A stretch of DNA of 64,000 bases from Cystobasidiomycetes sp. EMM_F5 (lineage: Eukaryota), in the NCBI GenBank assembly GCA_051047955.1, contig JBPGPT010000026.1:62001-126000 (forward strand), given 5' to 3'. Shown one piece after another: positions 9,739 through 55,825 of this stretch; position 1 is the first letter of the stretch; each line of letters opens with the position of its first letter. A program made the translations under genes and the position numbers. A model generated the notes under the pieces. The model ran no database searches. It saw only the letters and a list, made by a program, of their open reading frames with translations, and was not told the DNA's origin.

Positions 9739-11728
9739 TCAAGTCTGCTTGAGCCTTCCATGCCTGTCAGTTTCCTGCACAGGACCGGTGTATCCAATCC
9801 TTGCACCGCATGACCGTAGGAAGTCTACCTTATCTGCCCACTGTCCGTCTCGCTCGAGCGCCAGCAAGAGATCAGCGGCAGCGTTGGCCGCCTCACTCCG
9901 CTCCCTCAGCATTCGCCTGGCGTTACCCCCGCTACTCTTCTTCGCAGTATCCTCCACGGCGGTCGATGAGTCGCTCTGCCCAGTCCCAGTTGAGGCTTGT
10001 AGTTGCTGCTTGCCAGTCGAGAGCAGCGTAGGCCACCATATACTAGCCAAGACGCGCCACGCCACGACCAACCGTTTCCACTGCTTGTAATTTGCGTCCA
10101 CGAGCCTGGTATGGTACACTGAAAAGGCAGCTGTCCATCCTAATGCAATGAAGAGTCCGATCGGAGTGAAGAGGCACAGTGCCCACGTAAAGAAGAAGAT
10201 GGCGGGGTAGATGAAGAGCAGCAAGACGAGTAACGAGAATACAATCTTGTTCTGTGCGAATTCTTCGGCATCGACGGCATTGACGTAGTATTGTGTTGCT
10301 TTGCCAATGATGTAGATTGGAAGATGGGCAAGTAGAGGGAGAATAAAGAAGGGCAAGAGTTTCAGCGATGAGAAAGTAGCTTTGAAGAGCGCCCAAAGCG
10401 TGCGAAGTCTGTCTGGAACCGGAGCGGGATGCAGTGGATCCAGTATCCTTGGCAGCGGAATAGCATTGAGCGAGGCATTCGTATACCGCAATTGCCGGAG
10501 AGTAGCATCGTAGCGGACGAGTGCAGCTTTAGCATGAGCAGACTTGTCAGATGTGTGCGCGTTGGGCGAAAAAAGCTCAATCATGCTGAATACCAGCACC
10601 CGTTAGCTTTAGCAAATGATTCACAGCTTGTGAGTACGCACGTCTGCGTGATGCGAGTCCATTCAGATAGTGGGACGTTGTCGTCATCTCCCCAAAGTAG
10701 TTGACGGGCCATCTCTGCAGCGTGAAGAGTGTCCCAATCCGGAGAATTGATGGTCATACTTTCCATGGTTCTCTTGATTTTGGCAGTCAGCGCTTTCACT
10801 GCTTTCTTGTGAGCTGCGAGCTCCTTTTCTTGAGCTGTTGCTGTCGAGTCTATATTCTCAGTCTGCTTATCGGGCTCTGTCGAGCCCCGAATGAAATCCT
10901 CCTTGTACTGCTCCAGATCTATCGGCGGGCTGAAGGATACGACCACTCTGCTCCTATAGTCGGTCTTTTTGGTATAGACGATACTAGCGACGACCATCTG
11001 TACGTTTTTCGATCTACCCTTATCCTTTGCATCGACCGCACGGTCCTTTTCGTACTCGAGTGCCGCCCAAGCTGCACCCTCCTTGATATCCTGCATGCTT
11101 GGCTGGGTGTACGACGTACCCTCGGGGAAGATGGCGACGCATTCTCCTAGCCTCAGTACGTCGAATGTCCCGCTAAAGAGCTTCTTGTTATCCTTTGTCT
11201 TGCGGTCGACGGGGATATTACCGGCATCGCGGAGAAGCGCCGACACGGGCGCGTTGATGAAGATGGTCGACTTTGCCCAGCTGGGAGCGCGGGTAAGGTT
11301 TGGACGTTGAATCAGCGAGACTTGGCGTGCACAGCGAGTATTGCCTACTGACTAGTGGAGCTTCCGCTTGTGCGGGAACCAGCACGAGAGGATAGCCGGC
11401 TGTGGTATATGGAGTGTCAGTCGTTGATTCGCGTGTCCCGTTGTTGCCTGTATCGATCAGTGCCTCACGTCGACCTGCAGACATACATGCGCATCAACCG
11501 CAAGTCAGTCGGATACCGCAAGCGGCGTCGCTTGCACAATGCACAACACGGCCGCAGGGTCAACATATGAGGACGACGCACAATCATGTTCCAGTGGGTG
11601 CAGCACACGAGGAGGGGGCCGTCGACGGGGACATTGTCTGAGCCCTCGACGTGCACCTCGGAGAAGAAGCCAGACATGGCTGCCCGTGCTGCCCGGCGTA
11701 GTATACGGTGTGATGGCCCGAATGGCAT
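9739..11728 (-). CDS. Glycerol-3-phosphate/DHAP O-acyltransferase (Sct1/Gpt2 family)
   Basis: Spliced motif I THWNMI|VD|PAIL, then HYWAKS, GNIPVDR, IFPEGTS and INSPDWDTLHAAEMAR. C-terminal TM helices. Confidence 0.9.
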
Positions 11729-12186
11729 GGCTGGAGATGGCAGACCAGAGTATGACGCGCAGGGTGGTGTGAATGAAAGATGACGCCGAGCGCTGGCCGG
11801 TGACGTGCTGGAAGCGCTCAAGAGGCTCATATACTAGACCAAAATGAAATGCAACTACAGCTTGTACTGTGTATGGCTTGTAGAGTTACTCATTCCGTTG
11901 ATTGATTTGCTTGCTTGCTGTCCGGCCATGTTGCGCTCTCCGCTCTCCCCAAGGGACTGCTTCAAACCACCACAATCGACTACTCGTTCAAGCCCAGCGA
12001 TTCCAATCCATATTCATTGCAACAGGTGTGTCACACATACTGCTGCGTGTCTGTCCTGGGTAGTCTGCTGACGTTTCCACCATCCTGGTCCGCCGTCATC
12101 ACCTGACGCGCACTCGCTGTTTCTGCCATTGCCTTCCATCACACACTGGCCAGCGCATCACCTCAGGACGCTCTCCATCCACCACC

Positions 12187-12827
12187 ATGACATCCACTCA
12201 GTCTGTCGCAGGCCACCCCATTGCCAGTGAGTGCCCGCTCTGCTCGAGTCCCCGTCATCCCTTACCCCTTTGTTCGCCAAACTGCTCCACAACAACCGGA
12301 GATGAAGACACAGACACAGAGCTGACACTCGAGTATACTCCACAGTGAAAGTTGGGGGAAGGAGACTGAGCGTGTCGAAGAGTCCTGTTCCCAAGTCACA
12401 GTGGGTGTGACCTGGTGCATTTGCACGAGTTGACACTGATGCCATCCCCGTGTGCCTGTCGATGCGCATCACCAGCCTGTCCACGTCCCCCACAGCTACC
12501 AAGGACACTGGCAACTCTGCAGCAAAGGAGCCCGCAGACGCCAAAGTCTCCGAGTCTGCTCTCAATCCAGACTATCCCGTCGCTGATCCAAAGGACAAGG
12601 ATGCAGCACTGGCAACTGCAGACGCGTATCCTCGTCCACAGAACGGTGCAGCAGCAGGTCAGGAAGGTGGTGGGGAGGTGCACAAGGACGACGCAAAGAA
12701 GGAGGAGCAGCCGCCTAAAAAGGAGGCAAAGAAGCAAGTCTTTGAGGATTCAAAGCACGCACACATCAACAAGAACCCGCACAGCGTAAAGAACGTACCC
12801 ATCAAGCAGCCAGGTGGAAAGATGTGA
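12187..12827 (+). CDS. Small disordered DAP (death-associated protein)-like protein, 148 aa; exons 12187-12226, 12346-12400, 12476-12827
   Basis: Two canonical introns (GTGAGT..GCTGAC..CAG; GTGGGT..CTGAT..CAG) join in frame. Product is MTSTQSVAGHPIAMKVGGRRLSVSK...KNVPIKQPGGKM*. Confidence 0.75.
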
Positions 12828-13394
12828 GGAGTCAGCGTGTGCGTGTTCAGCAATACGAATGCTGCAAAAATAAAGCGAGCAAAACAGAGAACGCAGGAGG
12901 TAAAACTGTAGCAATAGCCAAAAAAACACAAAGTGATTGATGAATAAGCAATCAGGCAATAAATCTCGTACATTTCGGCAGACACTTGCTGAAGCTGAGC
13001 TACAACGGGTCGACAGCTGTTTGACTTCGAGCACGCTTTCAGGCAGGTCTAGTGATATGATGGCCCTTTCGTAACGTTAGAATGATACGCGATGACATTC
13101 GGTGTCGGGCAATTACACGCTGCAACGTAAAGTCGGCGGCTTGTCTCGACCACGCAATCCTTTGCCAGTCGCAATTCGGTGCACCGGTCGGCGGTCAACG
13201 CATCTCGGCCAAACTTCGGCCATACGACTGCAACAGGGCATCCGGGCACACTTTCGGGACATGACGACAGCAGCGATGCGCTGATGCAGAGGGTATGTAG
13301 CATGTAGACTTATGATGACTTTCCTTTCTGTTCCCGTACCTTACACCATTTCCATCCCAAGCTCTGTCCTTGTTCGCAAGGCGCCCCGCAAAGC

Positions 13395-35384: not shown

Positions 35385-37200
35385 TCACCGAGAATCACTT
35401 CCGCTTCCCGTCGACGGTCTCGGTGTCCGCGGTCTGGGCATACCTTCGTTGCTCTCCGCTGTCGTACTTAAGAATGGGTTTTGACGAGGTAGAGGACTAG
35501 AGGTCGCTGAGGACGAGGCTTGCTCCTGCGCGTCGGAGCGAAGTCCAGATATGCTGCTGCGTCCAAGATGTGGCGGATTTTGCGAGCTAAAGACGGCCAG
35601 TGTCGAAGAAACACTTCGAGATGGCGATGCAGCGCCTGCCCGTGAAGGCGTCGACGCTCCAGATAATGTAGGGAAAGAAGGAGGGGCAGATCGCGGCGAG
35701 TGCAGTTGATCTGGCAATGAGCTACCTTGTACAGATCCGGCCGCACTTGATGGCAGCCTTCGGCTTGGAGCTGGAGAATTGTATGCCGATCCCATGGGAG
35801 TAACGTACGCTGATTGTCCGGGCGTCGGTGTCGGAGAAATCGCTCGGCTGGAAGAAGCAGCTTCTGCGGATGATATCGTGTCGTCCACAGACGCATTTCT
35901 CGATCGTTGAGATATGGGCGGCATTTCGTAGTCTTCTGGACCTCCGTTGGTCTGGTTCAGGTGCTTGTACCCAGACTCTCCGTCGTCTGTTATACCATTC
36001 ATGCCATTCACTCCAGCGCCAGGGAACGCGAAGGATGTACCTATGCGAGCACCAGCATTGGTAGCGGAGGTTGCATTTTGCATGCCAGGTTGTCTCGACA
36101 GGCCCCAATCGCGCATCCACGGGTCGGCATTCAAGAAGAAATAGAACGATCCAACAGCGAGGCTGGCACCCGCGACTAGATCAATGAGGTAATGGTGAGT
36201 GAGATACATGGTCGACCAGTATAGCCACAAGACGTAGACGACATAGATCACGCGATAGCGCGGGAAAAAGTGATTCAACAGAAGCGCGTCGGTCGTCGAG
36301 CATCCCGCATGCAATGAAGGGAAAGCGCCAAATGGCATAGGCGAGTTGGTGAAAGTATTGGTGTAGCCATTGCCGCCAAAGAGGGCGTCTATCCGAGCCA
36401 AGCCGCCAGGAGAACCTTTCATCGTGAAGTCTGCTGGAGCCATGCCGTACAATAGTTCGTACCCTGTACCAGAGCGTGGACCGTTCAGTCGTGTGGTTCA
36501 GGGAGATGAGGGCAGACTTACATGGCGGGGCGCAAGGAAAGAGACATTGGATGGTCACGCCAACGAAATTCATCCAGCCGAATACTTTTGCGAAAAACTT
36601 GACTGCTCCGGGTCTATTCATTTGGCCCATGATTAGCAAAGCTGCATATGTTTACGCATATGCGCATGCAACTACTTACGGGCCGAATATCCATATCAGA
36701 GCCGCGGCTACAAAGGGGAAGGAGAAGTGCATCACGCCATACGGTAGCCAGGCAAGAATGTCGAGAACGGAGCTAGTGTAGCGAGTTAGGATATCCGAAA
36801 TATTTGCGCCATAGAGGACAGATTCGAGGGTCGGGAGGACTGATACCCATATATGTGGACGGAGGAAGAGGATTGTGTATTTGGAAGAGAAGTAGTGCAG
36901 CAGCCACGAGAAGATTGGCGTCGCTGGCAGAACGAATTGGCCGGTGAAGGGTACCAAGACGAGCGTCGAGTATCCAACAATGACGATAGCTGGTCCCTCC
37001 CACCCTGGCATGACGTACATGTTGCAAGCCGCTACGGTGAGCAGGACGAGGTACTGAGCATCGCCTCGCCATGTAAATTGATGGTGCTGCAGTCGCTTTA
37101 TCGATATCCGTGGATCAAACGAGAATTCCAGTCGCGATATCGCGGCGAGGAGTGGGCCTGCAAGCCATTTTGGCAGAGAGATTGTTGCTAGGGATGGCAT
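35385..37200 (-). CDS. AUR1: Inositol phosphorylceramide synthase catalytic subunit
   Basis: VLPTLESVLYGANISDIL, AWLPYG, FPCAPPW, GSPGGLARID, FGAFPSLHAG, MYLTHHYLIDL. Long Ser/Pro-rich tail. Confidence 0.95.
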
Positions 37201-40197: not shown

Positions 40198-40638
40198 ATG
40201 AAAGGCAAGCGGACTATGGTGCACTCGGCGATGCTGGAGCCAGAACGGGCAGACCGCGCGACCGAGGTCCCCACTACTGCTTCATCAGTAAAATGGTTGT
40301 TCGAGACATGATCATCACCATAGCGCACCCGTTGCTGCTGGCAGAAGGAAGATGCACTACATTTCAGGTGTGTCACGATATTGCGACTGCGCGTCTCGTT
40401 GTCCATTTAGCCAACCAGCCATCTGTGCCGGCAATCTGCACAAAGGCAAGCCATTGATCATATGTGCCGGCCTTGCAACTTGTCCAAACGACACCGAGGC
40501 TGCGATAAATCAGAAGTCTGAACTTGTGAAACTGCTGGCGCAGTCCCCGTCTAGCCCGTCGTAGTGGACGGCTGCACGAGAAGCCACGTCTGAGTCGGAT
40601 ATCGTCAGTCTGGACCACAATCATCAAACCGGCCAGCG

Positions 40639-40811
40639 ATGCAACGGCGTCCAGCTCCGTCCGTGGGCAACGCGGCATCGCTCTTTGGGGCTACATCGTC
40701 GCCGTCGCCAGCAACAACGCCGACGCCCGTGGACGGCGAATCCAACGCGGTCGCAGCTGGGACTGGCGACTTCTTTTCGAGCAAGCCGCAGCAGCACCAC
40801 GGCCAGCGCGT

Positions 40812-40851
<40 letters not shown>

Positions 40852-43800
40852 CAGCCTGCCATGTCCAGTGCAGCAGAGTCGGATGAGACCACGGCAAACC
40901 TCTTTGGGGACGACAGTTCCGGCCAGAGCTGGCTAGGCGGGTCGCTTGGAAACGATGCTCCTCAGCTACACCACCAGAATCAGTACCCAGACGCGCAGCA
41001 GTACGACTGGAGTGCTGCTCAGCAGCCGCAGGTCGACAGTGCCTCGTACGCCAATGCCGGAACCTATCAGGAACAGTACGCAACCTACGATGCACCAACT
41101 ACGACTTACTTCGGACAGCAATACTCGTCGCAGCATCAGCAGGATCAGAGTTTGTACTACGATCCCGCCGCTCAGCAACAGTATCAGCAAGGCTTGCAGG
41201 CTCAAGCGCATTCGGCTGGTCCATCGAGCTCGTCGGGGTCATACACGAATGAGCAAGGGATGCAATATCAGCATAATGGATATGCAGATGCGTACGCGGG
41301 ACAACAGACCAACTATCAGCCGTATCAGTCGGAGACTCCATATCAATATCAACAACCCAGCAGCCAGTATGCACCGTACGGCAATCAGCAGCAATCGTCC
41401 TACGTTCCTCACTCGTACCAGAATCAACCTCAAAGTGCATACGCAACTTCTGCAACTCTAACACAGCCACATAACTCATCGCAGCCGTATTCTGCTCCAG
41501 CGGCTGCCGCGTTTTCACCTCAAATGTCAAACGCGCAAAGTGGATACAGCCAATATACGAACTCCCCTCAACAAGCGGCAGCCCACTCTGGTACATACTC
41601 TGATGCGTACGACCCTTATGCACCACCACCCGTGAATGCGATTGCGCCAGAACGAAATAATCAGCAACCGCGCTTGTCGCATGCCAAAACGACGGCAAAT
41701 CTATCTTCAAACACGACTGGCTATGCATCTCCCCAATATGCTTCTCCACCTACTCTGCATCACGCGAATTCCTTTGCACCTCAAACGACCTCTGCACACC
41801 CGGTCCAAGCAGTCGCAGCACAAGAAAAGACACTGAACAGATCCAAATCTTCTTTTTTTGCAGATCTACCGCCTATGCCACAGCCGAGATCGCGACCGTC
41901 GACGGCCATGTTGCGAAACGCATCGTCGTCACAAGGCAGTTTGCCTCAGATGGCAGACGCAGCGAAAAGTGCACCTTCTCCTCTACCGCCACCCCCGCCT
42001 AAAAGCCGAACACCGTCAGGCTGGGCGAGCAGTGCATCGCAGACAAGTCAGCAGTCGACTGTACCTCGGCCTAGTTCAGTCATTTCAAACACGTCACATT
42101 ATGGATCTTCTGGGCGTCCGCCGTCCCGAGGACCATTGCGACAGTCATCCTCGCGAGTCACTTCACCGATTATGTCGGCAGGCAGTAGGGTCTTCTCTCC
42201 TCCGCTGCCCAGCACGGTTGCAGTCGAGCAGGGTGCAGCGCATTCGAATTACGGCCAAGCCCCATATTTTACGCAAACTGAGTATGAACAGCAGAGTGTG
42301 CCTGCGCAACAGTCATATACTGCTGGACCAAATCAGTATAGTCCATCACCCCATCAATCAGACGAACGACATCCTGGACAGCCACAGCAGCCTGTTCGCC
42401 AATACAGTGCTCACGCACCTGGACCTCCCGTACAGGAACATTCTGTATCACGGGCTGCCGCGAATGGTTCCCGGTATACGCCGACGTCTCCACTTGCAAG
42501 TCCGCAGATGTACAATAATCGGGTACTTGCCTCGCCCCCGCCTGGGCAAGGGTACGCTCCCATTCAACGGCCTTCCATCGATGGCGTCATGAGCCAATCA
42601 ATCATGCCCCAGCCAAACGGAAGAGAATCTCATGTGTCAACTAATCCGCCATACCCGAACCAGCAGAGCGGTCATTCGCCTTTGGGCCATCAGGGACCGC
42701 TGCTCATGCAGACAAATGCACACTTGGACGCTGAACAATTTCTAGTCAAGTCGCAGCCCGCACACTCGCCAGGACCCGTTTCGCCGAGGACAGGTCACGC
42801 GGAGATACATCGAAACCATTCGCCTATTCGTCCCGCTGAGCTTTCATACAACTCAGGTCAGGTTGTAGTACCTGCAGCTCCTACCCCATCGATAACGAGA
42901 CCGTCGTCCGCGACTACGACGGATGCTTCACAGACGCCTGCGGTACCAGCAGTAAATTCCATGCCCAGCCAAAATGATGCTACGCCCGCTGGCAGCGCTT
43001 CCGCAACACAAGCGTCCAGCCGGAGTGTTACGCCAGTACGCTCTGCCGCGTCGGCCTTCCCTCCGACTGTAGCTTCTCCTGTTGTGCCACAACAGGCGCC
43101 AACACTCACTCAGTCACGAGGCCCGTCACTGTTGTCAAAAGAGCGGCAACATCCTGATGCGGATATGGAGAACTTATCTGCTTCTTTGCAGGCGACGAAG
43201 CTTGGGACCGCGGTTCCGCCAGCGCAGTCCGCCCGGCCGACGCGAATGTCAGCAGCTCAAGCGACGCAACCTCTCGAGCCTGCAACGCCAGTGAAGCCTC
43301 TATTTGTACCCGCTCTTAACGTGACCGCCCCTAGCCCGGTGAATGAAAAGCAGCAATCTGCTCTATTTGAGACGGATAGCACGGTCATAGATCATCAGCC
43401 ACAAAACTCGATGCAGGAAATGGACCTGGAATCTGCCGAAGACGCCTGGAATTTGGACGAGGATTTGAACATTTCGGCGCCGCCCTCACCTGCCGTTCAG
43501 CGAACACAGCCAGCAGCAGTCAAACGCGAGTCGCCTGTGCCTTTCAAGATTGGCAATATGGCACCTGCATCATCCAGCGCGCAGGTCAGTGCGAGCTCCA
43601 CCGACACAGCAGACGTCGGCATCGACTCGGACTCAGCGAACACTTGGGATATTCCCGAGGTCGGTACTGAGGCAGACGCATGGGGTCTCGATGACGACTT
43701 GCTGCCTGAAGAGTCGGTGCCGCAGCCGGACATTCTGTCGCAGCCCGCAAGTCATGAAGGCTCTGCGCTCCACACGGCAGTGGAGCCTGGTCTGCAATAC

Positions 43801-46800
43801 TCGCCTTCAATCCGTGCAGGCGTGCCACCAATTAAGCAAGAAGTCGTGGATGAGCCAGTCTCCAATCAGCAAGCTCAGCCTGCCTCGTCGACGTCCCATT
43901 CTGTCGGAATCTACGGGGGAATCCACGTCAAGGAAGAGGAGACTGATGAAGTCTTTCCTTCGTCAAGGCCGTATGTACCGCCAGTGCTCTCTTCAGATCC
44001 AGAGTTGGAGCCAAAAATGGAAGAATCCGAGAGTCTATCTCCGAATCCTCAAGCCATGCGAGTTTATGAGCACGACCATACTGCTAAACAAGAAGTTGGA
44101 AATTCCATGGGCAAAACTCAGGAGTCCAGTACTGAGAAGCCAACATGGGTTCCATCATCTTTGGGCGCCCTAGAAATACAAGATGGTGCACATACTTCTT
44201 TCCCGATCGCCGAGCAAGAGTTCGAGAGACGCTACATTGCTGACGGAGACTTGGAGACTGAAACAGAAATGCTGCAAGGTCCGTATGAGCAAGCCACGGG
44301 GGCAAACGAAGATGGCAGTAAGATGCAGTCCGGTAAGTCAAATTTATCTTAAACGCAACAATGCGCTATAGTTCAACTGAATAATTCGTACAGTCTATGG
44401 ATACTCGCAACCTCAAGACGATCACTATGTGCCGCAAAGTGCCTCCACCTTAACGAAAGAGCCAATGCTGTACGACGAGACTTCGTATGCCAGCCATCAA
44501 CTGTCCCACTCGATGTATCAGCCTGACTACACCCAATATCACCCGCAAACCGAGCCATCGGCGCAGTCAACAGTGTACAACTCAGCCTCTGCATCGGACG
44601 ATATACCGTATGGCGTGCAGAGGAACGATCATAGCGCAGAAGTTCATCAGTATCCACAACAAACTTACCAGGCTCCTATGTCAGATCTCACTGGCTATTC
44701 TCGAGACGTTCCACGCTCGCCGTACGACTCAGGCTATGGTGCTCCTGATGCTATCGCGGATAGAAGTTATGGATTTGCTACTAATGCTGCGAATCATGCG
44801 GGTCCGCAATATGGATATAGTGACAATCGACCATCTGTGTCCGATGATGCATCAGGTTATCTCCCGCACGACTTGTCACAGACAATACCATCCAATCAAT
44901 ACGTGGTAGCTTCTCAGCGTGTAGCAGATGTCCTATATGCAGATACTCGGAATCCTACACTGGAGCAGACAGTCAAAGACCCGATAGGCAACTTAGATGA
45001 TCACTCCGACAGCCCGGCTCATGGATTCCAAGCCGTCTACGATCCATACTCAGTTCCTACGGAACCGACACCAACAAAGCAGGTATCAGACGCCGGGTTG
45101 CCTAGAAGATTGGCCGATGACAGCCAACGGCCGGCAATTCCGGTAGCCAAGTTTACTTTTAATGGCAAGCTCATGACTTGCTTCCCTCAAAGCTCTTCTC
45201 AAACATCGACCTATGGAGCTCCTTATTCCGAAGCATCATCTAGCTCGGCTGCGGTCAAGCTACAGCGCATTTCAGAATTGCTACCCAACGATGCCAGCCT
45301 TCTGGAGGCCTTTCCCGGACCATTATACCAAGATCAGTCAGCATCGAGCGCCAGCGCAAAGACCAAAAAACGACGCGACGTTCTGGCCTGGCTGGATAGT
45401 CGCGTAGAAGAGGCCAATCTAACAGTCAACTACATCGGTGCCGGAGGCGATACTGCGCAAAGATATGAAGCGGAAGGTAAAGCCGTACTATTACGAGTCA
45501 TCAAGGCACTACTGGAAAACGATGGGCGGCTCCATGGCAGGTGAGCGGTTCGTGTGTCTAGGTCAGGCGCGTATCTAAAGTATGTTTATGATTTGCAACA
45601 AAGCCCCAAAATCAATGAAGCTGTACGTGATGCCTTGCTTGCCGGTTCCGCGCTACTGGATTACAGTGAAGTAAAGTCGGCAACGATGCCAACCGCGGTG
45701 GACCTGGGAAACAAGCCTGTGGCTGCTGAAACCAGTACTGTACCAAGTGCGGCAGTCTCCGGCAAAGACCTTACTGCGATACAGTCGCATCTGCTTCGCG
45801 GCGATAGAGTCTCTGCGGTCAGGTATGCTCTGGATCGTAAGCTGTGGGCGCATGCACTGGCACTTGCACATGGTGCAGACAAGGAATTACAGACTACTGT
45901 CATGAACGAATTCTTGCAGTCGGAACTCAACGCTGCCGTCTCGCCAAGCTATCCAGCGCTTAGACTGGCATACAGCATGCTTTCAGGCAGTGGCGCCGCG
46001 TCAGGTGCGTCTTCCCAACGCGAACTGCTGTGTGCCGCAGACTGAATCTGCTGTTGTATAGTGCGGGACTTTCTTCCAGTGCGGCCGCTTCTGCAAGCAG
46101 CAAGTGCGGTTCCCCCTCCTGCTCTGCTCGTGCCTTCCGAGAGCGGACCTGGAATGGCAATGTCGCGTACACCTACGCCTACGCTGCCAAGTCCAATTGA
46201 ATACCCCAGCGATGTTGGAATAGATGTGCTGTGCAATTGGCGAGAGGCTGCTGCTTATATTGTCATGAATCGCCCAGTTGGCGACTCTCAAATTCTGGCT
46301 GCTTTAGGTGATTTACTTAGAGCGAATGGAGGGTTGTCAGCAGCACACACATGGTCAGTGCTCAATTTCATCCACCTTTCACGCAGCCTGAATTGCCTCT
46401 CTGCAGCTACCTCTTGTCTCCCTCTACGTCATTGTTGCAAAATGGAGGACTGCCAACCGGGCGATACTCTATTCTGGGGGTTGCTAATCCACTCATGAGT
46501 CCGACATCCGTTCTTGATATGGAAGCGATATTAGTGACAGAAATTGTCGAGTATGCATTTTCATTTGCAACCGTGCCTAAAGGACAAGAAGCGTACTCCG
46601 GTCTGCCACACTTACAGGCCTACCGCTTGTTACACGCGCGAGAGCTGGCAGGTCTGGGGCTGCATGCTCAAGCACAGAAGTACTGTGACGCGATCGGCGC
46701 AACGCTCAAACTTGCTACGAAAGGGTCGCCCCTGCTCAATGCGACGTTGCTTGGCCAGGTGAAGGAGCTGTCCGATCGATTGTCGCGTGTTGCATACAAC

Positions 46801-48240
46801 GATAAAGGCGGCTCGTGGATCTCCCGCAAAGTGCAACGTCCTACTCTCGACAACGTCTGGTCCACCCTTGAAGGTCGATTTGCTAAGTTCGTTGCGGGAG
46901 ATGAATCGCCAAATACGGCTTCTGCGTCTAGCAGGCCGACTGTGGAAGAGCCCGTCAAGGCTACCGCTGGACCATTTGCTCATTACAGCTCGATTACGCC
47001 AGCCGGACCAGACAGCATCTCTCGTGCTACCTCTGCGACTGACCTGAGTCGACAGTCACCACCTCCGCAACCGCAGCCCTCATCTGCGCCAAATACCGTC
47101 ACGAGGGGCAATAAGACCACAGGACATCATAGACGATCCTCAAGCTACAGTTATGGGCCGTATGGGGCTGAGCCGTATCCGCCGTATGTGCCACAAGTAC
47201 CCGAGATGGCGGAAGAGCCGGAACAACCTGAGTATCAGCCACAAGTCAATAACGAGCCTCATTATGGGTACGTCACGCCCCAAAATGACACTGGCTGGTG
47301 GTCTTCTGCCAATGGATCCAACGGAAACGTATCAGACCCTGCTCAGCAGGAATCGCCATTTGCGCATGGGGGCAGTTCCGGATACATGTCGACACCGATG
47401 TATTCGCCAATGGGCAACGAACAGTATGGAGGCAGCCATGAGGGCCTTATGTCACCAATGCAGATGCAAGCAACCACTCAGCATGCCGCTCCTCCCAGTC
47501 GTTTGGCGCAAGTCTCCACGCCCACAACCATCGAGGATATATACGAAGATGACCTCGGACTTGGGAATAACGCTAACAAGAAAGCCAAGCAGACCACTAC
47601 CGATGACAAAGTCCAGGACACGACAAAACCCGAGTCCACCACTGAACAATCGAAAAAGGAAGAAGATAAGAGTGAGTAGCAAAGGCGCATCAAAGAAAAC
47701 TTGCAGTTGAGCTAATACACACATGCGTTAGCCGCTGTCAAGCCACCCGAGAAGGGCAATTCATGGCTTGGACGCATCTTCCGGAGGGAGGGTGGTTCGC
47801 CTGGACCCATCAAAGCCAAGCTTGGTGAAGAGACTTCGTTCGTGTATGATCCAGTGGAGAAGCGATGGGTGAATAAGAAGGCTGGTTCCGACACACCTCC
47901 GCCCGCGCAGACTCCGCCACCGCCGCGATCTCAGACTTCGTCTCCTGCGAGTATGGGTGTGCCACCACCGTCTCGCGGAACATCTCCCGTCCCGCCCCAG
48001 ACATATGCATCTTCCACCCCTCCTCCACTTTCAAATGTCAAGACGGAGCACTCCTCGCCTCTTGCTGCTCCACCTCTAAGCACAACACCGGCCCTGCCCT
48101 CACTCGGTGCGACTCTCCCGCCGATACCCCGATCTGGCGGCTCAGAAACCCCGCTGCCGCCGCGTAAAGCAGGAGGAGCAGCTGGAGCAGGCCGAAAGAA
48201 TATTCGCTCGCGTTATGTCGATGTCCTTGGTCAGCAGTAA
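40639..48240 (+). CDS. SEC16: COPII coat assembly scaffold Sec16
   Basis: Very long disordered N-terminus, [53 protein letters not shown], ending RSRYVDV. Confidence 0.92.
40813..40848 (+). repeat. (CAG)12 microsatellite encoding polyQ in Sec16
   Basis: Pure CAG run, in frame. Confidence 0.95.
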
Positions 48241-49223: not shown

Positions 49224-49480
49224 GAGTAGGTGGAGTAGAAGACCGGAGATGGGTTACAGTAACGTATGTAGCATAAAGATCGGCCTCGAGCATGGCTTTG
49301 CACACTCTGAATGAGCAGATACCAGCCGACTCGAGTGTGCGATTGTATCATATCCGTGTGCCGTGCTTGCTCCACTGCTTGTTTTGCAGAAATTTAGAGG
49401 GGGAGACCTTGACCGGAAGTGACCATAGGCCGTCAAAATTGGCCTACAGCGTTACTCGCAACCGACTCCAGAGGCCCGCC

Positions 49481-52400
49481 ATGCCATCAGCATCGCAGGC
49501 AGCAAAGAACAAGAAGAAGAAGCTCAAAAAGCAGCAGCAGGCCAAAGAACTGTCGCAGCAGCAGGGAAACACGGGAAATGCAGCTGGAAAACGGGCAGCA
49601 GCTGCAGCAGCGGCAGCAGCAGCGCAGGAAATGGACGACGACCAGTTCTTGGATGCTGCCCAGGCTCAGGCAAACCTCGAAAGGCTGAGACTGGCCCAGG
49701 CGAGAGCAGCGGCGGCGGATGAGCTGTACGACGAGGACGACTTGGACGAAACCGAAGACGACGATGAGCCCGACGACGAGCGAGAGCTGGACGACAATGA
49801 CGGAGGCCTAGACTACCTCAGCGACGGCCAGGACGCTGGGCACCGTCACCAGCCAGCAGCGACCGCCGTCCGAGGGCGAAGTAGTCTGGATCCGCAGGAG
49901 GATTACATCGACGACGAGCGAGTGTACCGCCAGCAGCAGCAAACGCAGCGTAGTCGGATGGCCAGCGCGGGAGCTGCGTCAAGTCCCCTCGCCCACGCTC
50001 CTCCACCGCACACTGCGAGCAGCGCAGATTTGCTCGGTACGGCAAACGACCTGTACAAGCAGATTGAGAGCGCAGCAGCAGCGGCACTCTCTGGTCACTT
50101 TTCCATTCCGCCCTCGTCTACCCATCCGGGCACTCTGTCGCCCGCGACGCAGCAGCAGCTCGCCCAGACTGGCATGATGACTGGCGAAGAAGACGACGCC
50201 TACTGGCTGTCTCTGCCTTCGCATCTGCGCTCATTCATCAGATCTGCTCTCCCTCTGGCTGCAGGACTGTCCAACCAAGCCAACGCAATGAGCGAACGGG
50301 CAGCCGGCGGACAGAGTGCCAATGGCAGTCCCATCAATTTCGCAACGGCTGGCCTACGAGACGGATTGACCGCTGCAAGCGCGGCAGCCGACGTCATGAA
50401 TAGCTCACTCCCCGGCCAGCTCAACCTCACACCAGACCAGATGGCGGCCGCGGCCGCGCAATTGGCTCAAGTCGTGCAGAACGGGTGGCAGAGTACCCTG
50501 AGCAAGGAACCAGCTCATAGAGGCAGCAACGGGCAAAATCACTCTACGATGACTTCTCAAACGTCTGGAAATACAACGACTACCACGACAACCATCCCGC
50601 TAGGCGCTTTTGCTCTCCCTTTACCGCTTCACCCCCACCCAGACTCGCCGGAAGCCGCAGCAGCGTTCCAAGCAGCGACAAATGCGGCCGCTCAAGCTGC
50701 TGGCATGACATCGCTTGGTCCTAATTCAGCTCAAGCCAACGCTCCCTTTCCTTCACTTGCCAGCTTGCAGCAATCCTTGCAGACCTTGGCCAGCATGCAC
50801 GGAGGGCTCCCTCCTGTGAATTATGGAACAAATACCACACCGCACAGTCAACAACAGCAATTGCAGCAAGCGCATTTTCAGCAGCAGGCCCCTATCGCAC
50901 CATCGAACGGTGGCGATGGCCTGGACGATGTGATTCCAGGAGAAAGCAAGTCTGCAAGAAAGAAGCGAAAGAAGCAATTGGCAGCTGCTGTGCAAGCAAA
51001 GGCAGAGGGGATGGTCATTTTGCAGCAGCAGCAGCTGGCCTTTGAGCAATTTCAGAGGGAAGAACGCCAGCGGGAACAGCAGCAGCAGCAGCAGCAGCAA
51101 CAACAGATTCAACAACATCAACAGGCACAACAGCAACCCCAACAGCAGCCGCAGCCGCAGAGGCCAGGTTTGCCGCCTATAAACCTGCCGCTCCCGCCGG
51201 CGCCTTCCACGAATGGAGTAGTAAGCTTTTGTTCATACGGTAGTTTGCCCCTATGACTGACATTTTATACGACAGGCTGAGGTGCGACCAGTTCCAAAGA
51301 TGCCTCCACCCCCAACAGCCAGAGCTGCCAATGCGAAGGGTGCAGCAGCGCCTCAAACAGCTACCGCTCTTCCACCGAGAAGTGTTCCTCCACCAACATC
51401 TGCACCACCTCCTACGCCCACCATGAAGCAGACTGTAGCGGCAGGCAAACAGCCGCAGACAGCAAGACCGTCCAAGCCGCTGCCCGCGCCAGACGCTGCT
51501 CAGACCGCCCAGACAAATGCAGCTAGACAGCGACCTGCTCAAGCTCCATTGAACAATAATAATCCAATCTCTCCTCCGCCAGCTCAAAAGCCTCTATCGG
51601 CCGTAGCTAGCGGTAAGAGACCTTTGGTCGCCACGAAATCGGCAGTGCCTGTCGTGCCGTCAGCTCCAGCGAAATCTGTCACCGGCAATACGGTTCAGAA
51701 TCCACCTGCGCCGCCCGCTGCCGCACCTATTACAAATGCTGGGAAGCGGGCCGTCAATAACGCACGCAACGACGTGGCGGCACAGCAATCTCCCGCTGCG
51801 GCGACGTCACCAGCGGTAGCAACAGCTGCTTCTGCGGTTGCTGGATCGTCACTACTGAACCCAGCAGCTGCTGGAGAGCGTGAGAAGATTCGTGAATTTT
51901 GGCTTGGGCTGAATGAGAATGATCGACGCAGCCTAGTCAAGGTTGAGAAGGACGCAGTCTTGCGCAAGATGAAGGAACAGCAACGACATGGTTGTACATG
52001 TGCTGTTTGCGGGCGGAAACGTCAGGCTATCGAAGTTGAGCTGGAGGTTTTGTACGATGCGTACTATGATGAGCTGGAGAGCTACGCAAATCATCAAGCA
52101 GAGTATCGCAAGTCTGGCGGTACGATTCCTCCCCCGGCTGGCCCAGGGCCTTTTCCTGGTAGCGTCGACGTGGAAAGGCTGCTGCCAGCGCCCGCAACTG
52201 TACCAACGACTGCGAAGCCTGCTGCGACTGCTGCCGGCAAGAAACAACTCCCGCCGCCCACGTCTGGACGCGGTGCTGCCAAAACGCCTGCTCAGCCACA
52301 GCCTCCTGTTAACAAAACGACAGCAAAGGCCAAAGATCCACATCATACGCATAGTCCTTCGTGTCCACACTATCCTCATACACATAATCATCCGCATCAT

Positions 52401-55400
52401 CACCATCATTCAGCACCCCTGACCGCGCAGAATCGCGGCAAAGGCGTTCAGAACCCTCCGCCTGTGCACGACGAGCACGACCACAAAGAATACTCGGACG
52501 AGGAAGAAGAGTACGCCGAGGATGGCGATGAGGACTATGATGATGATGATGAAGGTTCGTATAGTTTGCAATGCTGCCACGAGAATGCAACATTGACATG
52601 TTTACGTTGTCTACAGAATACGATGAAGAAGATGAGATGGAAGAGCAAGATAGTCTTCCTCCGCTCGAAGGTATGGATAGCGGTGAGGAAGACGAAGTCG
52701 ATGCTCCGTCTCCGCCTCTGCAACATAATCCGCATCAAGGCAAGCATGTTCATCGCACGCATACTCAGCCGCCTGCCAAGTCACGTATAGCAAGTGAAGC
52801 GCCCCTCCCTCCATCTGATCGCAACGCGGTCGCGGCCACAAAGAAAGCTGTCCCCAAGACTGCGACTGATCCAGGTGACGATTTCTTTGGGTTCGGCTCT
52901 TCCTTGACCGTCAAGGGTGAGTCCAATTGAAATTTTTCTCCATACAAGTGTGAGGGCTTTCTCTGAGTCGTCCTGATGTTTGCTCCTTGTTTCTTTCGCT
53001 ATCTTTGTGTATATTCACTCGGTGGCTTTTGCTGTTATCGCTTTCTCACTAAGGAGGTATTCTCACCGTTGCCGACGATTTGCTCAAGAATGACGGGCAA
53101 AAATTCCTCGAAATGATGGAGAGCTTGGCCGACAAGCGTATCCAGCGCGAGCGCGAAGCGGCCGAAGGCCTGTTAGACGACGAGGATGAGGACGATGATG
53201 AAGATGACGATGAAGAGTATGACGACGATGAAGGTGAGACACGAGCGTACTTGTATGAGGCCACCCGCATGCTAATGTGCTACATGTTTTGGGCAAACAG
53301 AGGATGAGGAAGAAGTAAATAGCGTTTCATCGAAAGATAAGCATATTTTGACGCTTACTGATTCTCCGTTCTTCCCTTAGGATGATCTCGATGACGAAGA
53401 GGGCGACGAGGAAGTCCTTACAGAAGAGCAACGTATGGAAGAAGGTCGACGGATGTTCCAGATTTTCGCTGCAAGAATGTTTGAGCAACGCGTTCTTTCC
53501 GCATATCGGGAAAAGGTGTCTCAGGAACGGCAGCTGCAGCTACTACGTGAGCTGGAGGACGAGGACCGAGCCGCAGCTGAACGTGAGGCGAAGAAGGCCA
53601 AAGACGCTCAGAAAAAGAAGGACAAGAAGAAGTTGGCCAAACAGGCAAAAGATCAGGAGAAGCAGCAAGCAGATGAGGCTCGTGCAGCAGCCGAAGCGGC
53701 AGCGAAGGCCGAGGCAGAAGCAAAGGCAGAAGAAGACCGACGTCGTGCTGAGGAGCAGAAGGCCAAGCGGGAAGCCGAGCGCAAGGCTAAAGAGCTGGAA
53801 GCTCAGAAGCGCGAGGAGGCAAAGAAAGTCAGACTTGCTGAAGAAGCTCGCAAGAAGAAAGAAAGGGAGGAGAAGGCTCGAGAGCTGAAAGCCGCTCGCG
53901 ACAAAGAAGAAAAGGAGCGCAAAGCAAAGGAGGAAGCTGAGCGTAAGGCCCGACAAGAGCGTCAAGAAGCTGAACGCAAGGAGCGTGAAGAGCGGGAAAG
54001 ACAGAAGCAGGAAGCTGCAAAGCGTGAAGCGGCCGAGAAGAAAAAGCAGGAAGAAGAGCAAGCTGCAAAGGAGGCGGCAGCGAAAGCGGCGAAAGCGGCT
54101 GCAGCCGCAAAGGCAGCAGCAGCGGCAGCCAAGCAATCAGCTGCTACTGCTCGCATCGTGTCCGCAAAGACTATTCCCGGCCTGCCGAAGCCCCCTGCCG
54201 GACCGGCCGTCGCTGCTGCGACACCGTCTCAGTCGCAGCTCGAGGCTTCAACACAAGGTATGGCCTCCAATGTGCTACCAGCCCATCCAGGCTTTACGTC
54301 TGCACTGGCTTCCGGTCAAGGCAAGACTTCACAGCATTCTGCCAGTTCAGGCCAACCTCGTACCCTATCTGGAAGTGCTCCAGCTTTCAACAGCGCTACT
54401 GCGGGTACACCGTCTTTGGCTGCGAGACCCAACCCACCAGGCTTTTCGCCAGCAAACGCATCACAGCCAGCATACCTTCAGCAATCCCCGGCTTTCAGCT
54501 TTGGATCTGTTGCTGCTATACAGACGCCTGCCTCGCCATCCGTCCAGACGCGAGCCTCCTTGCAGCAGCAGAATGTCCAGTCTAGCCGACACTTCAGTCC
54601 ACACGTACAAAGTTCGAATGTTCCACAGCATGCAGTGAACGCCAATTCCCACAATGCCAGTCAATCGCAACGTGCCTTCCCGGCATTTACATCCGGTATG
54701 GCTAATGTGACTTCAGGTCATCCGCCTTCCGTTGGTCGACCAGTTCCGCTAGGAGCAGATTCGAGTAACTACAATAATTCGTCTCCTCAAGGTGTCGGAT
54801 ATGGTCCCCCACATGGTGCCTTTGCTCACAGTACTGGATTGCAGCATACAGGTCCGACTGGATCCCAGACTGTCAACGGACTAGGCTATCAGCACGCACC
54901 GTCAGGGCTTGCTGCACTGAATATGGACTCACAGGTAGTTGCACGTTCCGCTGCACCATCAAGTACGCAAGCCATCGGGGTCTCTCCGCAGGCTTCGAGC
55001 AGCATACACAGCAGCAGTGCTGCCCCAGGACACGCTCGGCGAGCCTCGAACAGTGTGCAACCCATTGGTCGCCCTAGGCTTGGCGATGGCAGCTTTCACG
55101 CTGGCATGTCGGACTTTGAGAGCACGCTCAGCTCCTCTGCTGGCGACAATGATGACATTTTCCCAATATCAACGTCTGCCAGTCTACGATCGATATCACC
55201 ACCTCCTGTTGTTCTCGGTTCTGGCTCACTACTGGATGACATGGTCGAGGAGGACGATGGGCTTAGCGGAATGTCGCCAAACACTAACCGATTTATGCCG
55301 CCTGCTCCATCGACTTCGTCATTCTTTGGTAACAGTGTATTTATGCCACCCGGACTCGGTTCTATCGGTCGTGCGCCTACTGCAGCTGCTGAGGACATCT

Positions 55401-55825
55401 GGGCTAGCGGACCGTCAACGAGCGACATTAGTCCGGGCAAGCGGGGAGGAGTGAGCGTGGCAACCACTGCTCCCGGATGGACTGCGCCCATCATTGCGCC
55501 GGACCGCGTCTCTGTCATCAGGGATCGCGCTCGTATCGCCTACATGCACTTTGATACGTCATCTGGACGAGAGGCGTACCCTGTCGCTGATGTCTACCGC
55601 GTCTTCCAAGCGCTGTACCCCGACTCGACCAGCGTGGATGTCAAGGAGTTTTTAGAGGCATGCGTCGTACCGGGCAACGCAACCAATGGCGGCGGATCCT
55701 TCAATTTCCAACAGAGTGGACACATGCTTCTCATGCTCTACTCGCCAACCAAGCTCGGCATGTACGGACACCCGGATCAAACTCACCAGAGTCATCATCC
55801 AAACGAGCCGATAGGTGCCCGTTAG
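49481..55825 (+). CDS. NST1: Stress response protein Nst1
   Basis: [80 protein letters not shown]. Confidence 0.93.

Follow-up and report, generated by a model that had tools for sequence, protein, structure and literature searches.

A three-exon gene on the forward strand

A small gene lies on the + strand at nt 12187–12827 of the window, that is, of the whole 64,000-nt stretch of Cystobasidiomycetes sp. EMM_F5 DNA (contig JBPGPT010000026.1) analysed here. Its three exons join into a 447-nt coding sequence for 148 aa, which runs from a start ATG (nt 12187–12189, context CCACCATGA) to a TGA stop (nt 12825–12827). Exon 1 (nt 12187–12226, 40 nt) begins with the ATG and holds 13 codons (M1–A13) plus base 1 of codon 14. 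The first intron (nt 12227–12345; 119 nt, phase 1) is bounded by GTGAGT..CCACAG, carries a CTGAC at nt 12322, 20 nt 5' of the acceptor, and is placed by these sequence signals. Exon 2 (nt 12346–12400, 55 nt) completes Met14 and is followed by the 75-nt intron 2 (nt 12401–12475, GTGGGT..CACCAG), which has a CTGAT at nt 12436 and an in-frame TGA at nt 12408–12410. Exon 3 (nt 12476–12827) supplies the last base of codon 32, a further 116 codons and the stop. In a stop-to-stop ORF view only this last exon appears as a long frame (nt 12411–12827), and the proposal in the first-pass annotation of a hidden three-exon gene with a 148-aa product was reproduced here with exact coordinates and an in-frame splice. 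An open frame alone carries little weight, since 665 one- or two-intron GT..AG combinations also stay open within nt 12187–12827.

The removal of intron 2 is seen in contigs from two runs (X1 and X2) that belong to two studies, both contigs being 100% identical to the window. In run X1, a 156-nt contig joins nt 12346–12400 straight to nt 12476–12575, with no differences from the window across the 55 + 100 nt flanking the junction, and the intervening 75 nt with GT..AG ends are absent. In run X2, a 227-nt contig spans nt 12476–12692, and the 10 loose letters before it are those of nt 12391–12400. Since nt 12400 is followed directly by nt 12476 in these contigs, with GT..AG at the ends of the missing piece, intron 2 is removed in real molecules, and as the GT..AG ends read on the + strand, the gene lies on that strand. 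The simplest reading is that both contigs derive from cDNA. An intron-less DNA copy remains formally conceivable as their source because the library types of the two runs are unrecorded (entered as 'RNA?' and '?'). None of the runs recorded as RNA that were searched for this stretch contains it. Three antisense ORFs (nt 12158–12571, 12396–12749 and 12659–13048) were dropped as candidates on account of the + strand GT..AG joint.

Exon 1, intron 1 and nt 12693–12827 have zero contig cover in the matching runs. The X1 contig stops at nt 12346, with one unaligned letter past it, and this end is a weak hint in favour of the intron 1 acceptor. When that acceptor is fixed at nt 12345, eight combinations of ATG and donor stay open, and a GTRNGT donor is found only in the pair 12187/12227. 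The ATG at nt 12187 is the first of its frame after a stop, and exons 2 and 3 contain no Met in the coding frame until the last residue, so that the start must lie on an upstream exon. Of the two splice junctions first proposed, that between exons 2 and 3 is borne out by spliced contigs from two runs, and that between exons 1 and 2 stands on sequence signals.

The reading frame is supported by comparison with P0002, the one relative recovered in protein searches (described below), which is 60% identical to exon 3 over the aligned part and differs from it in length by whole-codon gaps. Codon choice is also biased: two-fold codons end in C or G more often than in the long ORFs of the window, with AAG at 17 of 20 (0.68 in the long ORFs), GAG at 7 of 8 (0.55) and AAC at 5 of 6 (0.44). 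A second + strand ORF of 139 codons (nt 12370–12789) shares sequence with exon 3, and in the spliced RNA its frame remains open over 114 codons. Sequence composition probably accounts for this ORF, which was dropped as an alternative frame because P0002 is conserved in the other one.

The most sceptical view of the locus would be that no genuine coding gene is present, the model being an artefact of the many open splice combinations, or the product coming from another frame. The number of such combinations, the 114 open codons of the alternative frame and an exon 1 without read cover are all in keeping with such a view. Against it stand the exon 2–exon 3 junction in contigs of two runs, the conservation of P0002 in the proposed frame, the biased codon choice, and canonical splice signals with a unique consensus donor, and it is considered very improbable. 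A spliced fungal gene for a basic and, by prediction, disordered protein of 148 aa is regarded as confirmed.

A Pfam scan of ORFs in the window found a family in 3 of the 9 scanned. Upstream of the gene, an ORF on the – strand (nt 10581–11351) has an acyltransferase domain (E 1.4e-08) and belongs to a divergent neighbour within nt 9739–11833 (–). The minus-strand ORFs extend to nt 11833, which leaves a shared upstream region of about 350 nt before the ATG at nt 12187. Further away, an ORF at nt 35385–36497 (–) carries a PAP2-superfamily phosphatase domain (PAP2_3, E 6.7e-16). Three long same-strand ORFs of 1252, 387 and 452 aa occupy nt 40594–47679 (+). The last of them (nt 46321–47679, +) has the Sec23-binding domain of Sec16 (E 6.4e-43), the first was without a Pfam match at 1e-5, and all three may represent one large, intron-containing Sec16 gene. 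A 659-aa ORF at nt 49277–51256 (+) likewise matched no Pfam family at 1e-5.

A basic protein with a single detectable relative

The product has a mass of 15.5 kDa, a pI of 9.35 and a GRAVY of -0.99, with 19.6% K/R/H and 10% Pro. Its composition is of low complexity and rich in Ala, Lys, Pro and Glu: the 148 residues include 20 Lys, 20 Ala and 15 Pro, and 23 that are hydrophobic or aromatic. AlphaFold2, applied to the 116 residues of exon 3, returned a model that is nearly all coil with one short helix (mean pLDDT 60.2, pTM 0.13) and offers no fold usable as a structure-search query. Composition and model agree with the earlier description of the 148-aa product as disordered, and the protein is predicted to be intrinsically disordered. 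Residues 8–21 read AGHPIAMKVGGRRL and the C-terminal sequence is ...HSVKNVPIKQPGGKM; the final 25 residues contain no acidic residue and 8 K/R/H. The two S-P motifs pointed out previously are present as SKSP (residues 26–27; nt 12381–12386, exon 2) and STSP (residues 36–37).

In public protein collections the gene appears solely as an ORF-called fragment, and a single relative appears likewise. Of the 11 candidates from a word-indexed search with exon 3, two were matches, one being the window's own ORF and the other P0002. A phmmer search of 1.84 billion representatives returned the same two sequences, leaving P0002 as the sole relative, and a profile built from both found the same two again among 219 candidates at E<=10. 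P0002 is itself an ORF-called protein, so that the comparison covers the exon-3 part, the N-terminal exons not being in it.

Conservation between the two proteins is concentrated in three islands: LSTSPTATKD at the start of exon 3, which includes the second S-P site and is identical in P0002, DAYPRP in the middle, and a C-terminal block. Identity reaches 22 of 30 in the final 30 columns of the alignment, whereas two 15-column blocks from the middle of the linker have 3 of 15 each. Within the C-terminal block (the last 30 residues, nt 12735–12824), which is the candidate tunnel-inserting segment considered below, N-K-N-P-x-S-V-K-N-V-P-I-K-Q-P-G-G is kept in P0002. The Gln of the C-terminal motif is also retained there, followed by 6 residues rather than the 5 of the window protein, and the acid-free tail of P0002 is 26 residues long with 7 K/R/H (25 with 8 in the window protein). 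The expectation that both terminal motifs would be conserved among fungal homologues therefore holds for the C-terminal one, in a single relative and over the exon-3 part, the N-terminal one lying outside the compared region.

Pattern scans added no relatives. Automatic patterns run against metagenomes gave 591 matches, none of them a relative. The degenerate pattern N-V-P-[IV]-[KQ]-Q-P-G-G occurred at 11 metagenome loci, none gene-like by eye, all without an early stop after the motif (10 open for the 20 codons shown and one for 14), and at 10 loci in prokaryote genomes, all of them bacterial records. These loci in metagenomes and prokaryote genomes were taken as chance matches.

An 814-aa ORF at nt 53381–55825 (+) encodes a relative of NST1, a stress-response protein of fungi. 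The proteins closest to it are unnamed entries of ENA/Logan (at best 55% identity), and the best named match, from a Microbotryomycetes sp., is 37% identical over 29% of the query. From these matches it follows that the collection searched has no close annotated relative of the source fungus, which is consistent with the missing annotated orthologues of the three-exon gene. By its gene content the window is fungal, and a basidiomycete is a plausible source.

Terminal motifs compared with those of DAP and Dap1b

Leesch et al. (10.1101/2021.11.03.467131) print the N-terminal motif of DAPs as P-A-V-K-A-G-G-M/K-R and the C-terminal motif, which sits in the exit tunnel, as I-Q/H-Q-P-R-K/R-x. The motifs given by the first-pass annotation are consistent with the printed ones. 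In the fungal protein, residues 12–20 (I-A-M-K-V-G-G-R-R) are identical to the published N-terminal motif at 5 of 9 positions, and three more are similar by eye, though unscored (M for V, V for A, and R for M/K). Intron 1 cuts codon 14 after base 1 and so divides the motif, leaving A-G-H-P-I-A (nt 12208–12225) on exon 1 and K-V-G-G-R-R-L (nt 12348–12368) on exon 2. Residues 8–21 match a longer, 14-residue form at 9 of 14 positions; this 14-mer is the form quoted in the first-pass annotation.

At the other end of the protein, I-K-Q-P-G-G-K-M (nt 12801–12824) is a candidate DAP C-terminal motif that agrees with I-Q/H-Q-P-R-K/R at 3 of 6 positions. The I, Q and P are kept, and the departures are a Lys at the Q/H position and G-G in place of R-K/R. 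Gln143 (nt 12807–12809) may correspond to the Dap1b Gln that is invariant and contacts hypusine, and has exactly 5 residues after it. In Dap1b the tail likewise reaches 5 residues beyond the invariant Gln (10.1101/2021.11.03.467131), so the spacing from Gln143 to the end of the chain matches the Dap1b geometry at the level of sequence. Both terminal motifs thus occur in the order and positions originally claimed (residues 8–21 and the extreme C-terminus), as degenerate matches.

The chance occurrence of such matches was estimated from 200,000 composition-preserving shuffles of the protein. A 9-mer with at least 5 of 9 matches within the first 25 positions appeared in 3,547 shuffles, and a C-terminal motif with at least 3 of 6 at the end in 2,592. 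Both published motifs together appeared in 41 of the 200,000, or about 2e-4 per protein of such composition, and on the published motifs alone roughly one such chance protein would be expected per fungal proteome. The case therefore depends mainly on the longer N-terminal motif: the 14-mer reached at least 9 of 14 in 2 of 200,000 shuffles, which makes a chance match very unlikely, though the string is that of the first-pass annotation and not of a printed source. Taken singly, the short motifs are common. In six-frame translation (about 197,500 positions) there are 39 matches to the N-terminal motif at 5 of 9 and 1,308 to the C-terminal motif at 3 of 6.

Profile and structure searches were made with single-exon or read-through pieces, none of which has the whole N-terminal motif, and the Pfam and PDB tests are weak because intron 1 cuts that motif in two. 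In Pfam at E<=10, exon 3, its last 40 aa, the read-through halves of the N-terminal motif and P0002 matched no DAP family (presumably accession PF15228). PDB sequence searches with the pieces at E<=10 gave chance matches (E 0.38 to 3.9) or none, and no chain of Dap1b or Dapl1. In the ESM Atlas the top score, 0.76 for two unnamed 120-aa clusters of Ascomycota, fell short of a usable level, and no named match was found.

The main rival to kinship with DAP is that the gene encodes a lineage-restricted disordered protein unrelated to this family, for example a hydrophilin-like stress protein or a binder acting through short linear motifs, whose ends resemble DAP by chance or convergence. A single relative from such large protein searches is what this would predict, as are the lack of a Pfam family for the pieces, the ESM Atlas result and the low-complexity composition, and the published motifs match at just 5 of 9 and 3 of 6 positions. 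This rival has less to say about the two motifs lying at the right termini in the right order, about their rarity in shuffles both jointly and for the longer N-terminal motif alone, about a Gln-to-C-terminus spacing like that of Dap1b, and about a size, charge and disorder that are those of the family description. It is considered somewhat unlikely.

The papers searched in full text contained no description of a fungal DAP or Dap1b counterpart, and a text search for the motif strings found no relevant paper. The fungal 'Dap1' of the literature is an unrelated heme-binding damage-resistance protein. DAP and Dap1b are treated as an animal family (10.1101/2021.11.03.467131; PMC11102965, in the parts available). 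The gene is probably a fungal member of this known family that is new to the literature searched. Homology to DAP is something we infer, and the suggested kinship rests so far on short motifs.

A putative plug of the ribosomal exit tunnel

The explanation that we prefer, with a probability of roughly 45%, is that the gene encodes a divergent DAP-family protein whose tail would occupy the exit tunnel beside eIF5A in idle ribosomes. Every ribosome-binding step in this proposal is drawn by analogy with the animal factor. In an idle 80S ribosome, the acid-free, basic C-terminal 25–30 residues would thread the tunnel from its exit side; about 30 residues is the approximate length that an extended chain needs to span it. 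Gln143 of I-K-Q-P would take the place of the nascent chain's last residue and touch the hypusine of eIF5A in the E site, and the last 5 residues would continue beyond it in the direction of the peptidyl-transferase centre. The motif A-G-H-P-I-A-M-K-V-G-G-R-R at the N-terminus would remain outside, close to the tunnel exit. Under starvation, in stationary phase or in dormant spores, a ribosome occupied in this way would be blocked and kept in reserve, and its release through phosphorylation at the two S-P sites is a speculation.

Several features are in keeping with such a role. The peak of conservation with P0002 falls on the last 30 or so residues, of which 25 to 26 are acid-free in both sequences, and this appears to count in favour of a tunnel plug. 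DAPs are described as unstructured, basic proteins of about 15 kDa with 15% Pro (10.1101/2021.11.03.467131), and the fungal protein matches this description in size, charge and predicted disorder, its Pro content being 10% as against 15%. Deletions of exon 1/intron 1 in zebrafish dap and dap1b leave proteins of 18 and 20 aa (Leesch et al.). The zebrafish exon 1 must therefore be about as short as the fungal one, and a short first exon common to zebrafish dap/dap1b and the fungal gene is a hint of relationship.

Other features count against a plug. The fungal protein has G-G where DAPs have the basic R-K/R, and a Lys for the first Gln, which contacts rRNA. In fungi the tunnel site with eIF5A is already filled by SNOR (see below). 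Membership of the family is also no guarantee of function, as zebrafish Dap failed to repress translation in vitro and the Dap of Drosophila showed no binding to rabbit ribosomes (10.1101/2021.11.03.467131).

A DAP homologue could instead have the role of mammalian DAP1 and restrain autophagy under the control of TOR, with an S-P phospho-switch and no stable plugging of the ribosome. The end motifs are evidence for this as much as for a plug, and two S-P sites are present, the second of them in the LSTSPTATKD island that is identical in P0002. DAP1 is an mTOR-regulated negative regulator of autophagy, and certain DAPs bind ribosomes poorly (10.1101/2021.11.03.467131). Less easily accommodated is the fact that the best-conserved part of the fungal protein is the extreme C-terminal block with its Gln, the ribosome-binding element of Dap1b; the autophagy role, moreover, is given in the available part of the same preprint as one without a known molecular mechanism. 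On balance an autophagy brake acting without a plug is judged unlikely, and the two roles are not mutually exclusive.

If the plug reading is preferred, a tentative and possibly correct corollary is that the Dap–eIF5A tunnel module predates animals, and that the fungal orthologue would serve as a hibernation plug of ribosomes in spores or stationary phase, alongside SNOR or alternating with it. On the same reading, the orthologue would have been missed in annotation because the gene is tiny and has three exons, with the N-terminal motif split by an intron. Should this be true, a fungal member would date the DAP–eIF5A tunnel plug to before the animal–fungal split, would provide a microbial system in which to study the insertion and removal of the plug, and would raise the question of how the tunnel is shared between a fungal DAP and SNOR. 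The gene is also an example of the way in which disordered proteins encoded by short genes with several exons escape notice.

The closest known system is Dap1b/Dapl1, the exit-tunnel factor of dormant egg ribosomes in vertebrates (10.1101/2021.11.03.467131). Its invariant Gln occupies the position of the nascent chain's last residue and bonds with the hypusine of eIF5A, and mutation of this residue abolishes ribosome binding; the N-terminal motif of DAPs lies near Rpl31 at the tunnel exit, and this region crosslinks to Rpl31 in frog and fish (Leesch et al.). The fungal protein resembles Dap1b/Dapl1 in being basic, Pro-rich, predicted to be unstructured and about 15 kDa in size, with an N-terminal x-A-x-K-x-G-G-x-R and an extreme C-terminal I-x-Q-P whose Gln is 5 residues from the end. 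It differs in that the host is a fungus and not an animal, in having G-G for R-K/R and Lys for the first Gln/His, in giving no significant sequence or profile match from the pieces searched, and in that its ribosome binding is putative. The fungal block N-K-N-P-x-S-V-K-N-V-P is not part of the animal motif as printed in the preprint (10.1101/2021.11.03.467131). With DAP1 (death-associated protein 1), a substrate of mTOR that suppresses autophagy, it shares the same family motifs and S-P sites in a disordered linker. Plants have no known DAP1 homologue, according to the available part of a plant review.

A more general likeness exists to Stm1/SERBP1/Habp4, Lso2/CCDC124 and MDF1/MDF2, which are also small, basic and largely unstructured, and which occupy functional sites of idle ribosomes (PMC11102965). 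These factors use the mRNA channel, the A/P sites or the E site and not the tunnel, according to the available part of that source, and Pfam searches with the pieces gave no match to their families.

Among fungal dormancy factors, the nearest comparison is SNOR, an SBDS-domain factor of ribosomes from glucose-starved S. pombe, which occupies the peptidyl-transferase centre and the tunnel together with eIF5A and is present in 87% of the annotated Basidiomycota genomes surveyed (PMC13345908). No sequence relation is seen between SNOR and the fungal DAP-like protein. The likeness lies in a C-terminal tail that enters the exit tunnel and contacts the hypusine of eIF5A, as is here proposed for the DAP-like protein; the difference is that at the peptidyl-transferase centre SNOR places a folded, SBDS-like domain, whereas the protein described here is predicted to be disordered throughout.
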